Shown here one piece after another: positions 1,111-28,633 of a stretch of DNA of 42,352 nucleotides (position 1 is its first letter; each line of letters begins with the position of its first letter). Source of the stretch: Candidatus Magasanikbacteria bacterium RIFCSPHIGHO2_01_FULL_33_34 (GTDB lineage Bacteria > Patescibacteriota > Patescibacteriia > Magasanikbacterales > UBA922); contig MFPS01000003.1 in NCBI GenBank assembly GCA_001782825.1, positions 1 to 42,352 of the forward strand, written 5' to 3'. The translations under genes and the position numbers were made by a program. The notes under the pieces were generated by a model that was not told where the DNA came from, did not search any database, and saw only the letters and a list, made by a program, of their open reading frames with translations.

Positions 1111-3504
1111 ATGAAAAGCAAAAGAATACTAAAATTAACAAAAAAAGTTTTTACATTTGGTTTGATTATTAGTTGGCTTTTTACTAGTTGGCCACAAATT
1201 CCATTTGTTAATTTTCCAGAAAAGGTTCAAAAAGCACAGGCTGCAATTTCTGCGACTCATTTGACTGCTGGTAGTAATACATATCCATCTGATACTGGTA
1301 CCACAGCTTCTATTTCTCCAACTGCTAATGCTCTTATCATTGTAACGGTTGGAGTTTATAATGGTTCAGGTAATCCACCAACACCAATTTCAGTTATAGG
1401 GAATGGGATTACCTATGAACTGATAGATTGTTCAGGTGAATGGCATAGTGGTTTTGATGCAGAAATGGTTTGTATGTATCGTGGTCTTTCTGCTTCGCCT
1501 ACAACAGGGACAATAGTAATTACAGGAGATACAGGTACAGGTTATCTTTCTTGGTCGGTGGATGAAATTACAGGTGTATATGATACAGGTGGAAGTAATG
1601 GTAGTGGTGCGGTAATTCAATCTAATACATATTCTTCTGGAGCTGGTACAACTGATACAATTACTGTAACATTAGGTACTTTTGCAAGCGCTGGTAATGG
1701 AGTTTTGGGAACAGCTTATAACTATAATGCTGGAACTTTGGCAATAACTAAAGAAGCTGGATTAACAGAACTTGTGAGTAATTATCCTAATGATAATCCA
1801 GAAACAGCTTGGAGGAATGATAATGACACAAGTCTTGTTTGGACATTAACTGCAGATTATTCTGGTGGTATGGCTATTGAGGTTAATGGAACAGCACCTG
1901 GGACTTGTGATGGTGGGGCTGTTAGTAATGTTGTTTTTATTGGTAAGGTTAATGGTGATTGTATAGGTTTTGTTTCATCTACAGGTGCTGGTACTTTTAC
2001 ATTACCAGGAGATTGGTCTGATACTAATTTAATTGAAGTTATAGGTGCTGGTGGAGGTGGAGGTGGTACTAGTTCTGGTGATGGTTCTGGTGGTGGAGGT
2101 GGTGGTGCTTATGCGACTACAACTATTGCTAGTTTGGCAGATGGGGTTAGTTATTTTGTTGGTATAGGTGGTCCTTCTGCTACTGTTGGTTCGTCTACAT
2201 GGTTTGGCGCTACAACTTGTGGTGCGGCTAATGTCTGTGCTGGTGGTGGTGGTACTGCTACGGCTGGTGGTACTAATGCAAATACAGGCGGAGCTGGTGG
2301 AACTGTAGTTGTTGGCCAAGGCTATGCAGGCGGAGCTGGTGGTGATGGTGGTGGTGATACTGATGGTGGTGGCGGTGGTGGAGGAGGAGCCGGTGGGACA
2401 ACTGGGATTGGCGCTGCTGGAGGAGGATCAACTTCACATGCTATTGATGGTGGTTCTGGTGGTGGTGGTGCAAGTGGTGGTGATGTTGGAGCTGTAGGTC
2501 CAAGTACTAATGTTGGTGGTGATGGCGGAGCTAATTTTACAAATAGGAATGGTAGCCCTGGCGGTGGTGGAGCTGGTGGTAATGGAACAGATGGTACTGC
2601 TGGTACGTTAGGTGCTGGTGGTGGTGGTGGTTCTGATGCTTCTCAGGCTGCCAATGAGGATGGAGGAGCTGGTGGTAATGGTATAGATTTATGGGGTGCT
2701 TCGCCTTTTTATGGTTCTGGTGGTGGTGGTGGTGGTGCTGGTGATAATGGTATTGGTGGTAATGGAGGTAGATATGGTGGTGGAGGGGGTGGTACAGGTG
2801 AAGATGGTGATATTGGTGGTACTGGTGGACAAGGTCTTATTGTTATTACTTATACTCCATCATTAGCGCCTGTATTTACTCTTAATTCATATAGATGGTA
2901 TGTAGATAATGATTTTGTAGATCCATCTAATTCTTGGGGAAATCCTGATATAGCTCAAGATACTGCTATAACAATTTTACCTTATAGTAATCTTGCACCG
3001 ACTAGTACAGTAGAATTACGTTTGCGAACTAATTTTACTGTAAGTTCAGCTGCACTGAGTGCGGGGGCTCAACAATTTAAATTACAATTCAAAGAAGGAA
3101 CAGACGCTACGTGTAATACAGGTAGTTGGACAGATGTTGGTGCACAAGCTAGTGCTGTAACTTGGCGTTTTGCTAATTCTAGTGTAACAACTTCACTTTT
3201 ATCAGTGACTAAGCTTTCTCCAGTTTCCAATGTATTAGAGAGTTATGTAACTACTACTCCAACTTATGTGAATCCAAATTCTGTTTCTGTGGGAGAGGAG
3301 ATGGAATATGATTTTCATATTGAGCACAACGGGGCAACCTCTACAGATCAATATAGTTTTAGAGTAGTAGAAAGTGATAATACAGAATTTGATTCTTATA
3401 CAAATTGTCCTACTTTGGCTACAGGACCAGAAACGGCAGATTTAATGAGGCATGGTAATATGATTACTGCTATTGGTGAGCAAGGGTTTTATTGGGCAAA
3501 TTAA
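1111..3504 (+). CDS. Membrane-anchored or secreted glycine-rich domain protein
   Basis: 797-aa ORF with a hydrophobic N-terminal segment (FTFGLIISWLFTSW). The central region, about nt 2040-2830, is dominated by GGxGG/GGGGGG runs. It starts IEVIGAGGGGGG and ends GGQGLIVITY. The C-terminal part is not low-complexity. Confidence 0.6.
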   Translation: MKSKRILKLTKKVFTFGLIISWLFTSWPQIPFVNFPEKVQKAQAAISATHLTAGSNTYPSDTGTTASISPTANALIIVTVGVYNGSGNPPTPISVIGNGITYELIDCSGEWHSGFDAEMVCMYRGLSASPTTGTIVITGDTGTGYLSWSVDEITGVYDTGGSNGSGAVIQSNTYSSGAGTTDTITVTLGTFASAGNGVLGTAYNYNAGTLAITKEAGLTELVSNYPNDNPETAWRNDNDTSLVWTLTADYSGGMAIEVNGTAPGTCDGGAVSNVVFIGKVNGDCIGFVSSTGAGTFTLPGDWSDTNLIEVIGAGGGGGGTSSGDGSGGGGGGAYATTTIASLADGVSYFVGIGGPSATVGSSTWFGATTCGAANVCAGGGGTATAGGTNANTGGAGGTVVVGQGYAGGAGGDGGGDTDGGGGGGGGAGGTTGIGAAGGGSTSHAIDGGSGGGGASGGDVGAVGPSTNVGGDGGANFTNRNGSPGGGGAGGNGTDGTAGTLGAGGGGGSDASQAANEDGGAGGNGIDLWGASPFYGSGGGGGGAGDNGIGGNGGRYGGGGGGTGEDGDIGGTGGQGLIVITYTPSLAPVFTLNSYRWYVDNDFVDPSNSWGNPDIAQDTAITILPYSNLAPTSTVELRLRTNFTVSSAALSAGAQQFKLQFKEGTDATCNTGSWTDVGAQASAVTWRFANSSVTTSLLSVTKLSPVSNVLESYVTTTPTYVNPNSVSVGEEMEYDFHIEHNGATSTDQYSFRVVESDNTEFDSYTNCPTLATGPETADLMRHGNMITAIGEQGFYWAN

Positions 3505-8206: not shown

Positions 8207-9969
8207 TATTAAAAAATATAAAATTTTATTATAGAAGATACATATTTTTTGTATTTATATTTTTGTTTTCTATAATAGTTAACGCATCTTTTTGGGGTAC
8301 TGTTAAGGCTACGACTTTGTATTTTTCTCCATCTGTAGGTTCTTATGATTCTAACAACATTTTTTCAGTTGGTGTATATGTATCTAACCCAAATGAGTCA
8401 ATGAATGCAGTATCAGCGTTGATCACATTTCCTAAAGAAGTGCTTGAGGTTGCATCGGTTTCAAAAAGTAATTCTATAATAAATCTTTGGGTTCGTGAAC
8501 CGTCTTTTTCAAATAGTCAGGGTTTTGTAAATTTGGAAGGTATTGTTTTGAATCCTGGTTTTACTGGTGCTTCTGGTAAATTATTAACAATAAATTTTAA
8601 AGTAAAAACAGCAGGTCTTGCAAATGTTTTGTTTTCAGAGGCTTCTGTTCTTGCAAATGATGGACAAGGAACCAATATTTTGACGTCATTAAATAATGCA
8701 AATTTTTATTTGGGGAGTACAAATGTTTTGTCAAATGAATTAGTAAAACCACCCAAAACATTTAATTCACCAATTATTTATTCTGAAACACATCCAAATC
8801 CTAGTGATTGGTACGCTAAAGATAGTATCAATTTTAATTGGTTGATGACAGATGATGTGACAGATGTTGGTGTATTAGTAGACCAAAAATCATTTACAAA
8901 TTCTGGAACTGTAAGTGTTGGAAAAATTGATAAGTATACTTATTCTAATTTGGACGATGGCACTTGGTATTTGCATATTAAATTGCGTAATGCATCTGGT
9001 TGGGGACAGGCTGGCCATTTTCAATTTAATGTGGATACAGAAGGGCCGAAGAATTTAGAAATTAAAATAGTGGATAGAACTGATATGACTGATCCAAAAA
9101 TTGATTTTATATTCAGTGCAGAAGATGAGCTTTCTGGTATTGATTATTTTGAGGTTAAAATTGATGGAACGGTTGATAAAAATGTTGATTTTGAATCTGC
9201 CACTTATCAAGCTGAATTATTAGGATTGGGTAATCATATTATAACAGTTAGGGCTGTAGATAAGGCAGGTAATTTTACTGAAGACTCTATAGATTTTGTT
9301 GTAGAAGAGTTAGATGCACCAGTGATTGATGAGTTTAATAGAATTATTACAACAAATGATACTTTGATTATTTCTGGTAGATCAAGTGCTAATAGTAAAG
9401 TTACAGTATGGTTACAAAATAGTGGTGGAGATATAATAAAAAATATAGTTGATTCTAATGGAGACGGCGAATTTAGAGTAACTGTTGGGGATAGGTTAAA
9501 TGAAGGAACATATGAAATTCGAGCAGAAGTAATTACGGATACAGGCGCTAAAAGTAGACCAAGTGATCCTTTGCTTGTAGTAGTTAGACAACCAACTCTC
9601 ACTATGATTGGGGCATTGACTATAACTTTTCTATCGGTAGTAGTTCAAATTGCAGGTTTGCTCGCGATGTTAGTGTTATTGATATTATATTTTAGGTATA
9701 AAGTAAAGAAAATGTTATTAAAATTTAGAAAAGATTTGAATTTTACAGAAACTGATTTACATATTGCTTTTAATAATTTGAAAAAAAATATTAAAAATCA
9801 AGAAGATATGTTGAATAATAAAAAAATAAATCATGAAGAATTGACTGAAGAAGATGAGAAATTAATGCTGGAGCGTCTTGAAGTAGATTTAGATAAAGTA
9901 GAAAAATTAATTACTAAAGATATAGAAGAAATAAAGGGTAAATTATTAAAAGATAAGTTATTAGAGTAA
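8188..9969 (+). CDS. Cohesin-like domain protein with Ig-like repeats, a C-terminal TM anchor and a cytoplasmic coiled-coil tail
   Basis: Same N-terminal architecture as the preceding gene (FSVGVYVSNPNESMNAVSALITFPKEVLEVASVSKSNSIINLW...LEGIVLNPGFTG). TM helix near aa 470-500. Overlaps the previous CDS by 19 nt. Confidence 0.5.
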   Translation: MEDKEIILKNIKFYYRRYIFFVFIFLFSIIVNASFWGTVKATTLYFSPSVGSYDSNNIFSVGVYVSNPNESMNAVSALITFPKEVLEVASVSKSNSIINLWVREPSFSNSQGFVNLEGIVLNPGFTGASGKLLTINFKVKTAGLANVLFSEASVLANDGQGTNILTSLNNANFYLGSTNVLSNELVKPPKTFNSPIIYSETHPNPSDWYAKDSINFNWLMTDDVTDVGVLVDQKSFTNSGTVSVGKIDKYTYSNLDDGTWYLHIKLRNASGWGQAGHFQFNVDTEGPKNLEIKIVDRTDMTDPKIDFIFSAEDELSGIDYFEVKIDGTVDKNVDFESATYQAELLGLGNHIITVRAVDKAGNFTEDSIDFVVEELDAPVIDEFNRIITTNDTLIISGRSSANSKVTVWLQNSGGDIIKNIVDSNGDGEFRVTVGDRLNEGTYEIRAEVITDTGAKSRPSDPLLVVVRQPTLTMIGALTITFLSVVVQIAGLLAMLVLLILYFRYKVKKMLLKFRKDLNFTETDLHIAFNNLKKNIKNQEDMLNNKKINHEELTEEDEKLMLERLEVDLDKVEKLITKDIEEIKGKLLKDKLLE

Positions 9970-24836: not shown

Positions 24837-26177
24837 ATGAAGATATCATTTTATGGCGCCGCCGAAGAAGTAACTGGTTCTTGTTTTTTGTTAGAGACAA
24901 AATCAAGAAAAATATTAGTTGATTGCGGGATGTTTCAAGGATCAGATTTTAATGAAGCAAAAAATAGTGATGACTTTTTGTTTGATCCAAAAAGTTTGGA
25001 TGCAGTTTTGGTAACGCATGCGCATTTGGATCATATTGGTAGGATCCCAAAATTGGTACAAGAGGGGTACAATGGGCCTATCTATATGACAAAAGCTACG
25101 GTAGAACTAGCTTTGCTTATCTGGGAGGACGCATATAAGATTATGGAATATAACAATAAGAAATTTCAAGCACCAATTTTGTATTCTGAGGAAGATATAA
25201 ATAAAGCACATAAGTTATGTAAAGGCGTAAATTATTATGAAAAAGTTGATATAGGTGATGTAAAAGCATTGTGGAAGGATGCTGGGCATATATTTGGTGC
25301 ATCTTTTATTGAAGTTGAAGCTGATGGTAAAATGATTGTTTTTTCAGGTGATATTGGGAATAATAATGTGCCAATATTACGGGAAACTGATCAGATTGGT
25401 AAGGCGGATGTTTTGTTGTGTGAATCAACTTATGGTGGCAGAGATCACGAAACTCACAAGGAAAGTGTAGAATTGGTTATGAAATTAATCAAAGAAGGTT
25501 ATGATAGAGGTGGAGTTATTATGATACCAGCTTTTTCTTTGGAAAGAACACAAGAGTTTCTTTATGATTTGAGTCAAAGAGAAGATGAATTGCCAAATTT
25601 ACCAATTTTTTTGGATAGCCCACTAGCAATAAAGGCTTTGCCAGTTTATAGAAAATATTCAGAATATTATGATAGAGAAGCTAAAGTTATATCTGAGGCT
25701 GGTGGAGATTTCTTTTTGTTTGATAAATTGGAAATAACTAGTACCCCAGATCAATCAAAAAAAATAAATGACGCGCCGATGCCAAAAATGATAATTGCTG
25801 GTTCTGGTATGATGAATGGTGGTCGTATATTGCATCATGCTTTTAGATATTTGTCAGATCCAAATTCAACGCTCATTATAATTGGGTATCAAGCAGAAGG
25901 AACTTTAGGAAGAAAATTATATGAAGGTGAAAAGAAAGTAAAAATATTTAACAAGGAAGTAGAAGTAAAGTGTGCCATAAAAGCCATTGGTGGTTTGTCA
26001 GCTCATGGAGATCGTAGTAAGATGTTGAGTTGGGTGAGAGGTGCACAAAAAATACCAGAAAAAGTTTTTTGTGTTCATGGAGAAAAAAGTTCAGCCGTAT
26101 CTTTGGCGCATGCAATGCAAGATGAATTTGGAATAGATACTATAATACCCAAGTTTGCTGAAACTGTGGAAATATAG
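24837..26177 (+). CDS. Metallo-beta-lactamase fold beta-CASP ribonuclease (CPSF/RNase J-like)
   Basis: HAHLDHIGRIP (HxHxDH motif), ESTYGG, beta-CASP motifs, and the C-terminal HGE/SAHGD pattern. Confidence 0.8.
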   Translation: MKISFYGAAEEVTGSCFLLETKSRKILVDCGMFQGSDFNEAKNSDDFLFDPKSLDAVLVTHAHLDHIGRIPKLVQEGYNGPIYMTKATVELALLIWEDAYKIMEYNNKKFQAPILYSEEDINKAHKLCKGVNYYEKVDIGDVKALWKDAGHIFGASFIEVEADGKMIVFSGDIGNNNVPILRETDQIGKADVLLCESTYGGRDHETHKESVELVMKLIKEGYDRGGVIMIPAFSLERTQEFLYDLSQREDELPNLPIFLDSPLAIKALPVYRKYSEYYDREAKVISEAGGDFFLFDKLEITSTPDQSKKINDAPMPKMIIAGSGMMNGGRILHHAFRYLSDPNSTLIIIGYQAEGTLGRKLYEGEKKVKIFNKEVEVKCAIKAIGGLSAHGDRSKMLSWVRGAQKIPEKVFCVHGEKSSAVSLAHAMQDEFGIDTIIPKFAETVEI

Positions 26178-26214
26178 TTTTTATTTTTGTAAATAAAAAA
26201 AGTATATTAAAAAT

Positions 26215-26335
26215 ATGGGAGAGGGGTGAACCAAACCTAAAACCGCATACGCTGTGTTATGCACCATGAGTCGTAGTGTAGCGGATGCGAGAAGTGCAGC
26301 GTGGCGCGACTAAAAGGAGCGAGTTCAAAAAATAT
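26215..26335. other. Unassigned block of moderately high G+C, not coding (candidate small RNA or island edge)
   Basis: gggagaggggtgaacc...gtggcgcgactaaaaggagcgagttc stands out from AT-rich flanks. Only ORFs of 15 codons or fewer. No match to any RNA family I can recognise. Confidence 0.3.
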
Positions 26336-26524
26336 TTTTCAATTAACTGTATTTTGGTAGGCTTTTTCTCAATTATATCAATAAATTTGTTTTTTATCTG
26401 GGATGGGGATTAAGGGATGAATACACACCACCCAAAACATCTTATTTTAAGGTAAACAACAGGAATTTTGGTTAAAAAATGGCTTATTTTAGTAAAATTA
26501 ATCCCTGTTTTTTTGGGCTTGGTA

Positions 26525-26553
26525 TTGACAAGAGTCTTTTTTTATGCTATATT
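26525..26553 (+). promoter_or_regulatory. Consensus sigma70 promoter of the GC-rich cassette (TTGACA-N17-TATATT)
   Basis: TTGACA at 26525-26530, a 17-nt spacer, TATATT at 26548-26553. Same hexamers and spacing as the hrcA promoter. Confidence 0.7.
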
Positions 26554-26559
26554 ACTATG

Positions 26560-26740
26560 TCAATTTGGTAGATTTCGTTCTGCCTTCGCAGTAGTGAAAC
26601 CTCTAAATTGCAAGTGTTCTTTAAAAAGAGAAAGGCAAGCAAATGCGTGGGCATAATTCTGGTTATTTCTAACGAAGTAGCCAAGATCATGCCCACACAT
26701 CGTTTGGCAGCAGAAATCCACTTCAGAGGAGAAAAACAAC
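26560..26740 (+). promoter_or_regulatory. Long (~180 nt) structured 5' leader with a Shine-Dalgarno site
   Basis: Closing helix GATTTC-gtt-CTGCC (26571-26584) with GGCAG-ca-GAAATC (26706-26718). Internal hairpins CTGC-cttc-GCAG (26580-26591) and GTGGGCAT...ATGCCCAC (26646-26653 / 26688-26695). AGGAG at 26727-26731 lies 9 nt before the ATG. Confidence 0.5.
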
Positions 26741-27751
26741 ATGGAATTTAAGGCAACCAACCATCTTCGCGCCGAAGCTGACGAGGGCTGGATCGCCCTG
26801 GTTATGGGCAACTGGTTCCACAACAGCAACCGGTGCGACCTGCCCACCAGAACGCTCCGCATCTACTTCGCGCACTTCGACAACTACGAGCTGCGTGAGG
26901 GTACGACCGATCAGGGACATGTCGTTAACCTCTCCGGCTTCGACGGATCGAGGTATTGTGAGCCGCAGGGCTGGAATCGCTTCAGCAACGCGTACTACAT
27001 CGGCTACCAGGTCCGCGACCTGCAGTCCTTCGTCTGGCGCGCTGAGTACCGCAAGCACCGCTTCGAGATCCGCGCCCAGCGCATCGACAACAACCGCTGG
27101 ACCGTCGAGTACTGCAGCAACTGCGAGAACAGCGAGCACCGCTTCGAGATGGTGGAGTACAGGGATCTGCTGAAGGACTGGTTCCAGATGATCGACCCCG
27201 ACACCTTCGAGATCACGACGGCGACCACGACCATCGCTCTCGCCTCGGCTGCTGGCTCGGCTTCCCAGGTCGTCTGCAAAGGTGCCTCACGGGGCAACCA
27301 CACGCAGATGTACATGAAGCTCATCGCGTTCGCCGAGACCCAAGGCATCACCGACGCGAACAAGTGCTTCGGCGCCAGCGCCGTTCACGGTGAGCCCAAG
27401 CGTGCGGAGCTCCGAAACTGGTGGAAGATGATGTTGGAGCTCCACCGTGAGGAGGACCAGCCGACGTTCCGCGAGGGTTTCGACACCGTGCACGCCTGGG
27501 AGCTGTGCCACATCGACATACTTTTCGCCTGCTACGGCGATCAGCTTCCGAGATACATCCGTCACGGCAGTAACACAGTTCCTCAGGACCAGCTCGTCGA
27601 AGAACTGGTCATCATCGGACGCGCCGTACACAAGGTCCTGGGTCACCAGCCGACCTTCTCCTTCCGCGAGTATCTGTTCGGGCACTTCGAGAAGGATGTA
27701 CAACAGATGTTGTACAAGGTCAGCGAGAAGCTCGGTTGGACGATGGTGTAG
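26741..27751 (+). CDS. Orphan 336-aa protein with alien composition (~60% G+C, G/C-ending codons). Two domains joined by a T/A/S linker; function unknown.
   Basis: A 336-codon open frame is not expected by chance even at this G+C. 41 of the first 50 codons end in G or C, against 8 of the first 30 in dnaK. SD and promoter lie upstream, and a hairpin, ribozyme and terminator downstream. I recognise no family. Confidence 0.75.
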   Translation: MEFKATNHLRAEADEGWIALVMGNWFHNSNRCDLPTRTLRIYFAHFDNYELREGTTDQGHVVNLSGFDGSRYCEPQGWNRFSNAYYIGYQVRDLQSFVWRAEYRKHRFEIRAQRIDNNRWTVEYCSNCENSEHRFEMVEYRDLLKDWFQMIDPDTFEITTATTTIALASAAGSASQVVCKGASRGNHTQMYMKLIAFAETQGITDANKCFGASAVHGEPKRAELRNWWKMMLELHREEDQPTFREGFDTVHAWELCHIDILFACYGDQLPRYIRHGSNTVPQDQLVEELVIIGRAVHKVLGHQPTFSFREYLFGHFEKDVQQMLYKVSEKLGWTMV

Positions 27752-27782
27752 TACCAACTGCCTTTCTTTTTAACATTTAACT

Positions 27783-27815
27783 GGGGCCAGCTCGATGTAC
27801 AATCAAGCTGGCTCC
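27783..27815 (+). other. 3'-UTR stem-loop between the stop codon and the hammerhead
   Basis: GGGGCCAGCT (27783-27792) pairs with AGCTGGCTCC (27806-27815): 10 bp including one G.U, with a 13-nt loop. Confidence 0.6.
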
Positions 27816-27816
27816 A

Positions 27817-27882
27817 AAGGATCTTCCATTGAGAATGGAACTGATGAGTCCAAATGATTGTAATGAACAGGACGAAATTCTT
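27817..27882 (+). ncRNA. Type III hammerhead self-cleaving ribozyme motif
   Basis: AAGGAUC|UUCCAUU-gag-AAUGGAA-CUGAUGA-GUCC-(18-nt loop)-GGAC-GAA-AUUCUU. The full invariant core is present (C3-A9 at 27841-27847, G12A13A14 at 27874-27876, A15.1-U16.1, C17 at 27823, G10.1-C11.1). Stems are I = 7 bp, II = 4 bp, III = 6 bp with one G.U. Confidence 0.8.
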
Positions 27883-27893
27883 ATTAAATAACT

Positions 27894-27915
27894 CCGCCAA
27901 CACAGCGGTTTTTTT
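27894..27915 (+). terminator. Intrinsic terminator of the GC-rich cassette (short stem, strong U-tract)
   Basis: CCGC-caacaca-GCGG followed by seven T residues (27909-27915). Confidence 0.5.
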
Positions 27916-28083
27916 ATTCAAAAAGCGTTTCTGGAGTGTAGCGAAGGAAACATCATATTTCTACTAATCAAAAAAATAAAAAATAAATTTATCCCTTATT
28001 GAAAAAGCTTACCAAAATTTTGCTATTAAAAGAAAAATATTTTTTGAATTGCGTATAACTGTGGATAAAGTGCCTAAAAATGA

Positions 28084-28136
28084 TTGTTTCATAATTAAAA
28101 GTGGTGTATAATGGAAATAGGTGGGGAAAAGTGGGG
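28084..28136 (+). promoter_or_regulatory. mraZ promoter with phased GTGGNG direct repeats (candidate MraZ operator)
   Basis: TTGTTT (28084-28089), 17-nt spacer, TATAAT (28107-28112). GTGGTG at 28101, TGGAA at 28112, GTGGGG at 28121 and GTGGGG at 28131 have a 10-nt period. Confidence 0.55.
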
Positions 28137-28201
28137 AAAATAAAGTTTTCTACTTTATGCTTGTCGGTAGAAATTAAGTAAAAAATAACTATAACCTTGT
28201 T

Positions 28202-28633
28202 ATGTTTATTGGTGAATATTCCCACAATTTAGATGAGAAAGGGCGATTGGCAATACCAAAAAAATTTCGTCTTGATCTTTCTAAAGGTTCGGTTGTGACA
28301 AAAGGCTTGGATAATTGTTTATTTTTGTATACCCAAGAAGAATGGGACAAACTTGCACAAAAGTTGGCCAATTTGCCATTTGCACAATCAAATACTAGAG
28401 CTTTTGCTAGACTGATGTTGGCTGGCGCTATGGATGTTTTGATTGATAAACAAGGGAGAGTAATGTTGCCAGAATATTTGCGTACTTTTGCTGGTCTGAA
28501 GAAAAATGTGGTGGTAGCCGGTCTGTATAATCGTTTGGAATTATGGGATACAGAAAAATGGGAAGAATACAAAAATAAGACAGAAAAAGAAAGTAATGAA
28601 ATTGCTGAACAAATGGCAGATTTAGGAGTATAG
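28202..28633 (+). CDS. mraZ: Transcriptional regulator MraZ
   Basis: MFIGEYSHNLDEKGRLAIPKKFR and a second SpoVT/AbrB-like repeat (DKQGRVMLPEYLR). rsmH follows. Confidence 0.95.
   Translation: MFIGEYSHNLDEKGRLAIPKKFRLDLSKGSVVTKGLDNCLFLYTQEEWDKLAQKLANLPFAQSNTRAFARLMLAGAMDVLIDKQGRVMLPEYLRTFAGLKKNVVVAGLYNRLELWDTEKWEEYKNKTEKESNEIAEQMADLGV

Follow-up and report, generated by a model that had tools for sequence, protein, structure and literature searches.

A self-contained accessory gene lies between the genes for a beta-CASP ribonuclease (RNase) and mraZ in Candidatus Magasanikbacteria bacterium RIFCSPHIGHO2_01_FULL_33_34, a member of the Patescibacteria or candidate phyla radiation (CPR). The analysis covers positions 1 to 42,352 of contig MFPS01000003.1, referred to here as the window. 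The gene encodes a 336-residue orphan protein, has its own promoter and is followed by a candidate hammerhead ribozyme. It was probably acquired recently by horizontal transfer from a higher-GC pool, with the ribozyme processing the 3' end of its transcript. The gene family and its link to a ribozyme are new; the kind of event is ordinary, and it joins two known kinds, an acquired gene of atypical GC content and a hammerhead beside a mobile accessory gene. The components, by window position in nucleotides (nt), are as follows.

26324-26340, no strand assigned: left copy of an exact 17-nt inverted repeat, TTCAAAAAATATTTTTC, which brackets the GC-rich island.
26483-26497, plus strand: CTTATTTTAGTAAAA element upstream of the -35 hexamer, generic to Patescibacterial promoters.
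26525-26553, plus strand: sigma-70-type promoter TTGACA-N17-TATATT with extended -10 TG, 11 of 12 consensus matches.
26560-26740, plus strand: 5' untranslated region (UTR) of about 181 nt from a predicted transcription start, with an imperfect hairpin at about 26634-26707.
26741-27751, plus strand: gene for the orphan-family protein, 336 residues, G+C 0.60, third-position G+C (GC3) 0.84.
27782-27816, plus strand: strong 3' stem-loop right before the ribozyme, -24 kcal/mol, z-score (z) -6.7.
27816-27883, plus strand: candidate type III hammerhead, Rfam Hammerhead_3 (RF00008).
27894-27915, plus strand: weak intrinsic terminator with a 4-bp GC stem, 7-nt loop and T7.
28032-28048, no strand assigned: right copy of the repeat, GAAAAATATTTTTTGAA, a short way upstream of the conserved region that holds the mraZ promoter and DnaA box.

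The base composition of the gene differs sharply from that of its surroundings. The window is 33.6% G+C overall, and a 300-nt profile displays a single sharp island at 26701-27600, where G+C reaches 56-63%. This island coincides with the 336-codon open reading frame (ORF) at 26741-27751, which has a G+C of 0.60 and values of 0.56, 0.39 and 0.84 at the first, second and third codon positions (GC1, GC2 and GC3). In all 36 other long ORFs or coding sequences of the window, GC3 falls between 0.10 and 0.32. The leader and trailer of the ORF are intermediate, at 39-47% G+C compared with 20-33% in the flanks. The original prediction, made by a model from the letters of the window, had described both an ORF of about 60% G+C in an AT-rich genome and this intermediate leader and trailer; the sliding-window G+C, GC3 and codon comparison that it proposed bears out both, with one island and the GC3 contrast given above.

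The encoded protein is shifted as well. Arginine makes up 0.68 of all Arg plus Lys residues, R/(R+K), against a host-protein mean of 0.33, while the FYMINK fraction (Phe, Tyr, Met, Ile, Asn, Lys) is 0.26 against 0.35 and the GARP fraction (Gly, Ala, Arg, Pro) is 0.23 against 0.185. The ORF prefers CTG, CGC, GGC, GCC, NNC over NNT, GAG and AAG, the ordinary pattern of a bacterium with about 60% GC, and its codon and amino acid usage together match a genome or lineage of that composition. The earlier statement that the protein is not Ala/Gly/Pro/Arg-biased is thus incorrect. It had also been argued that G+C concentrated at synonymous sites is not the mark of a high-GC donor. GC3 is always the position most responsive to genome G+C, as Muto and Osawa reportedly described in 1987, and Arg is favored over Lys; because the third position responds most and the protein has shifted too, the argument from synonymous sites fails.

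A second bump in the profile, at 2100-2700 (52% G+C, G-rich), stems from a 797-residue protein encoded at 1111-3504, in which a hydrophobic N-terminal segment precedes a long core that is Gly-rich and of low complexity. With a GC2 of 0.59 and a GC3 of only 0.13, this glycine-rich surface-type protein is unrelated to the island and was set aside.

The gene is missing from the equivalent position in relatives. The upstream beta-CASP protein, confirmed by Pfam, is 47-66% identical to proteins from metagenome-assembled genomes, the named ones being mostly Candidatus Magasanikbacteria or other Patescibacteria. In the empty-site comparison suggested with the original prediction, the order beta-CASP, mraZ, rsmH is kept in 16 relatives, none of which carries the gene at the site; all are distant, their beta-CASP proteins being no more than 66% identical to that of the window. 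The gap between beta-CASP and mraZ measures 174-4430 nt in these genomes and is shortest in L046 (174 nt) and L041 (233 nt). Other gaps hold MazG-like, PD-(D/E)XK, HD, wHTH+DUF4325 or DUF218 genes, or different GC-rich inserts, and the site is therefore a variable spot.

An exhaustive HMMER search over 1.84 billion cluster representatives recovers 13 proteins related to the ORF product, five close (45-59% identity) and eight distant, and a metagenome scan for relatives adds one duplicate locus. The family has about 15 members; with only 13 proteins in 1.84 billion representatives, it is real but very small. The G+C contents of the family gene and of the rest of its contig are listed here by locus.

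L009: gene 61%, rest of contig 37%.
L003: gene 57%, rest of contig 36%.
L005: gene 56%, rest of contig 35%.
L007: gene 59%, rest of contig 44%.
L011: gene 54%, rest of contig 35%.
L012: gene 52%, rest of contig 40%.
L001: gene 56%, rest of contig 42%.
L004: gene 38%, rest of contig 28%.
L008: gene 59%, rest of contig 58%.
L010: gene 58%, rest of contig 52%.

The family occurs as single-gene, mostly GC-rich islets at unrelated places in AT-rich small genomes. There is no common synteny, and the neighboring genes differ at each locus. L004 carries a full-length, apparently intact homolog with a GC3 of 0.29; this copy is AT-rich yet has an R/(R+K) of 0.73, within the 0.62-0.77 found across the family. 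Two of the copies, those of L008 and L010, lie in contigs that are themselves GC-rich. In L008 the GC3 of the copy (0.70) is similar to that of most neighbors (0.64-0.80), and comparison of these neighbors with PHROG and Pfam provides no clue to a donor. The family gene is preceded by a small unrelated ORF at two loci, of 120 residues and lipoprotein-like in L003 (1796-2158) and of 88 residues in L010 (4604-4870), in each case within the same GC-rich island and with the same promoter type, indicating that a cassette can carry two genes. The original prediction had offered a very recent foreign gene as one explanation, and the absence from 16 syntenic relatives, the patchy family and the codon and amino acid usage of a genome of about 60% GC all agree with it.

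Purifying selection acts on the ORF, which is a genuine protein gene. Differences between codon-aligned homologs are most frequent at third positions, followed by first and then second positions. Among the GC-rich copies, nonsynonymous divergence (dN) is 0.33-0.48 and the proportion of synonymous differences (pS) is 0.64-0.76, with a dN/dS of about 0.2. The same frame is open in about 10 homologs, down to 24% identity. In an AT-rich genome, a GC-rich island classically points to a structured RNA, and the stretch contains several alternative-frame ORFs, as might be expected if it encoded a large structured non-coding RNA and the long ORF were accidental. This is scarcely credible given that the codon-position pattern refutes it; moreover, an alignment of 13 sequences produces a confident protein model and Rfam has no match over the ORF.

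The original prediction also allowed for an artefact, and the step in composition at the ORF borders is sharp enough to raise the question. Contig L060 (ENA ERZ5996431) is identical to window positions 26325-27236 at 100%, and then leaves the window sequence for unrelated DNA of 61% G+C (L060 913-1518, 1.5x coverage). This divergence looks like a local misjoin, the other possibility being a recombinant variant of the gene. Contig L061 (JGI 3300009285), however, matches 26495-28221 at 100%, spanning the promoter, ORF, ribozyme, terminator and start of mraZ, and the left and right junctions are reproduced at 100% by contigs of these two other assemblies. At least eight further, independent metagenomes show this contrast for the family, including inside a 1.15-Mb contig, and the promoter, Shine-Dalgarno (SD) sequence and terminator are in register with the ORF. 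Furthermore, tblastn against plasmid and phage collections detects no match to the gene. An assembly chimera, high-GC contamination, or vector or construct sequence is therefore most improbable: with both junctions matched in two other assemblies and no plasmid or phage match, a chimera or vector is excluded for practical purposes.

The ribozyme is the second distinctive component of the unit. The window sequence aligns with the full length of the Rfam model (1-54) at 34.0 bits and an E-value of 5.9e-5, and a further copy in L005 (27.4 bits, E-value 0.043) likewise follows the stop codon and a hairpin. The hammerhead motif listed in the original prediction holds, with the reservation that it scores below the Rfam gathering threshold; for that reason we call it a candidate hammerhead. 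The stem II loop exceeds the consensus length, at 18 nt in the window and 9 nt in L005, and appears as insertions in the Rfam alignments. The catalytic core, C3-U4-G5-A6-N7-G8-A9 with G12-A13-A14, is present as CUGAUGA (27841-27847) and GAAA (27874-27877), and is the same in L005. The window copy also contains the G10.1-C11.1 and A15.1-U16.1 pairs. H17 is C27823, after which cleavage is predicted, and the corresponding residue in L005 is A.

A descriptor scan for the core and three stems over 627 kb returns two sites only, at 27817 in the window and 1261 in L005, both after the stop codon of the family gene, behind a stable hairpin and before a terminator. In the window the stems are 7, 4 and 6 bp long, and stems I and II are loop-closed with stem III open, which is the type III arrangement. 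The proteins of these two loci are 54% identical, and all three ribozyme stems differ between them with the core kept. The comparison, which involves two sequences only, gives eight compensatory pairs (three in stem I, two in stem II and three in stem III) and none broken. In both copies, the minimum free energy (MFE) structure of the isolated sequence (68 nt for the window) is the three-stem hammerhead fold.

The stem-loop at 27782-27816 is predicted to act as a 3'-end clamp on the processed mRNA. L005 has a stem-loop at the equivalent position (z -3.7), and L003, L007 and L009 contain GC-rich inverted repeats past the stop codon, as seen by eye in unfolded sequence. The terminator first listed is found at 27894-27915, where a T7 tract follows a GC stem of only 4 bp. 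In the terminator scan only the minus-strand reading passes the 5-pair rule here, and we term it weak since it fails that rule on the plus strand. The corresponding terminator of L005 is strong. The layout first described, with its promoter, SD sequence, ORF and hairpin, holds at the stated positions.

At the other end of the transcript, the 5' UTR is highly structured, with an MFE of -59.3 kcal/mol (z -5.3, 0 of 200 shuffles), and 9 nt separate the SD sequence AGGAG (26727-26731) from the ATG at 26741. Leaders from different loci show no conserved sequence, though several others contain inverted repeats, again by eye and unfolded. An Rfam E-value scan of 26100-28250 identifies the hammerhead only, with no known riboswitch or second ribozyme in the leader. 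A 13-nt pairing between leader and trailer (26625-26637 with 27759-27771) was considered and rejected, the duplex z ranging from -1.2 to +0.9 in six loci. Circularization of the mRNA was discarded as well, as end pairing has no support and there is only one ribozyme.

Judged from its motifs, the promoter is the standard strong promoter of these Patescibacteria. Perfect matches to TTGACA-N14-TG-N-TATANT occur at two sites in the 42 kb, the cassette promoter and 11441. The pattern TTGACAAA-N-TRTGCTATAMT stands in front of the family gene at almost every locus, and in L003 and L010 it sits before the small upstream ORF instead. At several family loci CTTATTTTAG is found 20-45 nt further upstream of the TTGACAAA promoter, and the element at 26483-26497 has its counterpart 20-45 nt upstream of the TTGACAAA promoters of L001 and L009. 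The motif is also present before unrelated genes in the Magasanikbacteria loci L013, L019, L022, L027, L032 and L036, and the CTTATTTTAG and TTGACAAA/TRTGCTATAMT elements precede unrelated Magasanikbacteria genes and the infC operon of L009. Because these motifs stand before unrelated genes, the promoter signals are lineage-typical, and a cassette-specific promoter homology was rejected. The promoter type does not tell a gene that brought its signals along from one that recruited them. The original prediction spoke of a foreign gene fitted with host signals; the foreign gene stands, but the fitting is doubtful given a promoter generic to Patescibacteria, and the cassette could equally well have arrived with its own signals. 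We note that a (G)CTTATTTTAGC(T)AAA motif recurs 20-45 nt before TTGACAAA promoters at L019 8838, L022 6863 and L036 1700, and could be an UP-like element or operator common to the strong promoters of the group.

Several observations weigh against recent acquisition combined with ribozyme processing. No donor was found, and the GTDB representative genomes and IMG/VR contain no relative. Both hammerheads fall under the Rfam gathering threshold of 48.5 bits, the fold of the window copy is weak (-9.7 kcal/mol, z +0.35), and a hammerhead is present at only two of about 10 family loci. No recombinase, integrase or transposase is adjacent to any copy, and the 17-nt repeat has no counterpart at nine other family loci. 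Finally, of 10 copies in lower-GC hosts (flanks of 28-44% G+C), eight are still GC-rich despite saturated synonymous divergence, which requires either short residence times or selection, and in the 52% GC locus L010 the gene has a GC3 of 0.75 compared with about 0.55 in most neighbors.

The last two points favor an alternative in which high GC3 is kept by selection, the module needing a G/C-rich structured mRNA and being GC-rich wherever it lives. The purpose could be stability, resistance to A/U-directed RNases (of the host or the gene's own product) or slower translation. The unit is indeed built around structure, as the z-scores of the 5' UTR and 3' hairpin and the ribozyme attest, and the native MFE lies slightly below that of synonymous shuffles (z -1.6, -2.3 and -1.4). 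These shuffle values are weak and come without control genes as a baseline for ordinary mRNAs. No 5'/3' pairing is conserved, the codon pattern is that of ordinary high-GC bacteria, and the shift from Lys to Arg is not explained by selection at synonymous sites. Moreover, the full-length, apparently intact L004 homolog has a GC3 of 0.29, and high GC3 is thus not required. Selection on the RNA, which the original prediction had raised, is left unsupported by the shuffles (z -1.4 to -2.3), the UTRs and the AT-rich L004 copy, and we regard this alternative as unlikely. Even less probable is the proposal that the GC-rich ORF is a selected trait of a portable, ribozyme-finished module in AT-rich Patescibacteria whose product is a conflict effector of unseen fold. 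If that were true, synonymous G/C would protect the mRNA from A/U-directed RNases, possibly including its own product, and the hammerhead would give the mRNA a 3' end clamped by the hairpin and bearing a 2',3'-cyclic phosphate. Selected GC-richness would be an unusual example of composition as part of gene function.

The inverted repeat that brackets the island raises the question of how the unit moves. A length of 17 nt is reached in none of 200 shuffles, and the core, AAAAATATTTTT, is an A/T palindrome found at only these two places in the 42 kb (the second at 28033; 0.12 expected). One end of the independent contig L060 falls at 26325, a single base into the left repeat. The repeat is a possible insertion boundary or scar. 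The 1.7 kb from 26324 to 28048 would then be a small mobile element that is non-autonomous, or what is left of a larger integrated element, bounded by the repeat and dependent on a recombinase in trans, and the variability of the site in relatives is consistent with this. We consider such an element rather unlikely. The palindromic A/T core of the repeat lies in DNA that is itself very AT-rich, the island shows no visible target-site duplication, and the lack of comparable repeats at nine other family loci and of a recombinase gene beside any copy again tells against it. Transposon-like ends were sought at the other family loci, and none was found. The 42-kb window contains no tRNA gene and no Rfam family at the gathering threshold. 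A repeat-bounded mobile element is in any case compatible with recent horizontal acquisition.

Like an integron gene cassette, the unit comprises a single gene at a variable spot. Integron cassettes consist of a promoterless ORF with attC and lie next to intI and attI, whereas this unit has its own consensus strong promoter and its flanking repeat is an A/T palindrome. No attC-like R/L box pair lies past the 3' hairpin, where the ribozyme and terminator are found instead, and no integrase is seen, the window having been left unsearched for integrase genes.

Under recent acquisition, the family would diversify in a higher-GC pool, either GC-rich Patescibacteria or their mobile elements. Copies would land repeatedly in AT-rich genomes and then be lost or ameliorated, as in L004, and the window copy, with its GC3 of 0.84, would be the freshest. 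From its anatomy, the consensus Patescibacterial promoter should drive a transcript whose 5' UTR is rich in hairpins and whose SD sequence is good. After the stop codon, this transcript would form the very stable stem-loop followed by the type III hammerhead. The ribozyme would cut after C27823 and remove itself together with the terminator tail, so that the remaining mRNA would finish 7 nt past the stem-loop and carry a 2',3'-cyclic phosphate. Without depending on the weak terminator, cleavage would fix the 3' end of the mRNA and probably determine how stable it is.

Both halves of this scheme have precedents. Lawrence and Ochman reportedly described compositionally atypical transferred genes and their amelioration in 1997. 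As in such cases, GC3 and amino acid usage depart from those of the host, the gene is absent from syntenic relatives, its phyletic distribution is patchy, and one family member (L004) is already near host composition. The usual atypical transferred genes differ in that the contrast here is extreme (GC3 of 0.84 versus about 0.2) and confined to one ORF, and in that the same family recurs as an anomaly in most of its known hosts.

For the ribozyme, hammerheads are found on either side of single genes in prophages and other mobile DNA of bacteria, ardA of Agrobacterium and Legionella being one such gene, and are proposed to process transcripts to gene-length mRNAs (Perreault et al. 2011; PMC3088659). 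The present unit likewise has a canonical core beside one accessory gene in mobile DNA, on the coding strand, and its transcript would be expected to be cut to gene length. In those systems the associated genes vary and their functions are mostly not established, as is also the case here. Unlike them, the window has one ribozyme between the 3' clamp hairpin and the terminator rather than one on both sides, no integrase or prophage nearby, a Patescibacterium as host and one specific orphan protein family. Full-text searching located no paper linking hammerheads to Patescibacteria or the CPR.

A hammerhead in the 3' UTR of mammalian CLEC2 genes is said to have been described by Martick et al. 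in 2008. There, too, the ribozyme lies within the 3' UTR of a protein-coding mRNA, and once it cleaves, the 3' end is lost and expression is altered. CLEC2 genes carry a eukaryotic, discontinuous ribozyme that removes the poly(A) tail, in contrast to the compact bacterial one in the window, which would remove an intrinsic terminator.

The protein itself could not be assigned to any family, as the original prediction had anticipated: Pfam, PHROG, PADLOC and NCBIfam contain no match, apart from a chance-level Cas8a row in PADLOC (E-value 0.006, 14 bits), and a sequence profile against the PDB gives nothing usable. A known anti-phage defense or toxin-antitoxin system was discarded, with no match to a described family and no neighbor conserved across loci. 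In the structure prediction and Foldseek search that had been recommended, an AlphaFold2 (AF2) model built from 13 sequences is confident (predicted local distance difference test, pLDDT, 89.7; predicted template modeling score, pTM, 0.87), but matches nothing in the PDB or BFVD, with best E-values of 0.08-0.12 and template modeling (TM) scores below 0.2. Faint rows naming SRPBCC, lipocalin, TBP-like and AlkA carry no evidential weight. An earlier model based on five sequences is poor (pLDDT 64), and its Foldseek matches are meaningless.

The 13-sequence model features a beta-rich domain at residues 1-160 and a helical domain at residues 164-336. Short family relatives of about 240 residues keep the N-terminal domain only, without the C-terminal half, in line with the two domains first proposed. 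The segment TTATTTIALASAAGSAS, described as their linker, is instead modeled as a strand (residues 157-161) and a helix (residues 164-174) with pLDDT above 90, and includes the conserved residues A171, G172 and A174. Residues that are invariant include D47, R114, Y124, S126 and E139. The exact 16-nt repeat reported within the ORF is present. Inspection by eye shows neither a signal peptide nor a membrane segment, and on that basis the protein would be cytoplasmic. Other single hammerhead-flanked genes in bacterial mobile DNA, and the accessory genes found at the same spot in relatives, lead us to a tentative guess that the product may have a conflict-type function, in defense, anti-defense or addiction.

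As a case of gene flow into a Patescibacterial genome the gene is clean and datable, and it marks the gap between beta-CASP and mraZ as a variable spot in Magasanikbacteria. It ties a hammerhead to one specific protein family in Patescibacteria, and this covarying association is worth following up. The succession of clamp hairpin, ribozyme and weak terminator offers a simple test of the effect of a bacterial hammerhead on mRNA. A confident model that matches nothing in the PDB or BFVD makes the protein a reasonable target for structural and functional work.

The surroundings of the insertion site contain further features. Between the beta-CASP gene and the island, about 110 nt at 26215-26323 reach roughly 50% G+C, with no ORF, no Rfam match and little structure (z -0.65); this segment may be the remnant of an earlier insert. 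Directly upstream of mraZ, the Magasanikbacteria relatives L045 (11245-11575), L047 (7745-8060) and L049 (8275-8615, minus strand) each have a 300-nt island of about 50-60% G+C. The small ORFs in these islands (67-76 residues) are not homologous to each other, and the islands share a 3' hairpin, GCGCCG...CGGCGC, followed by TTYCATTT; they may be either coding units or RNA units. The same gap in L027 holds about 900 nt of 55-64% G+C in a 40% genome (7420-8330, minus strand), with no ORF of at least 70 residues, no Rfam match and a Patescibacteria-type promoter at about 8330-8370, and this stretch may represent either a large non-coding RNA or a GC-rich cassette that has decayed. Finally, a perfect DnaA-box-like TTATCCACA is located at 28066-28076, upstream of the mraZ promoter, and is conserved in all relatives. 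Its orientation is inverted in the window and L042, and GTGG repeats follow downstream, around the mraZ -10 hexamer.

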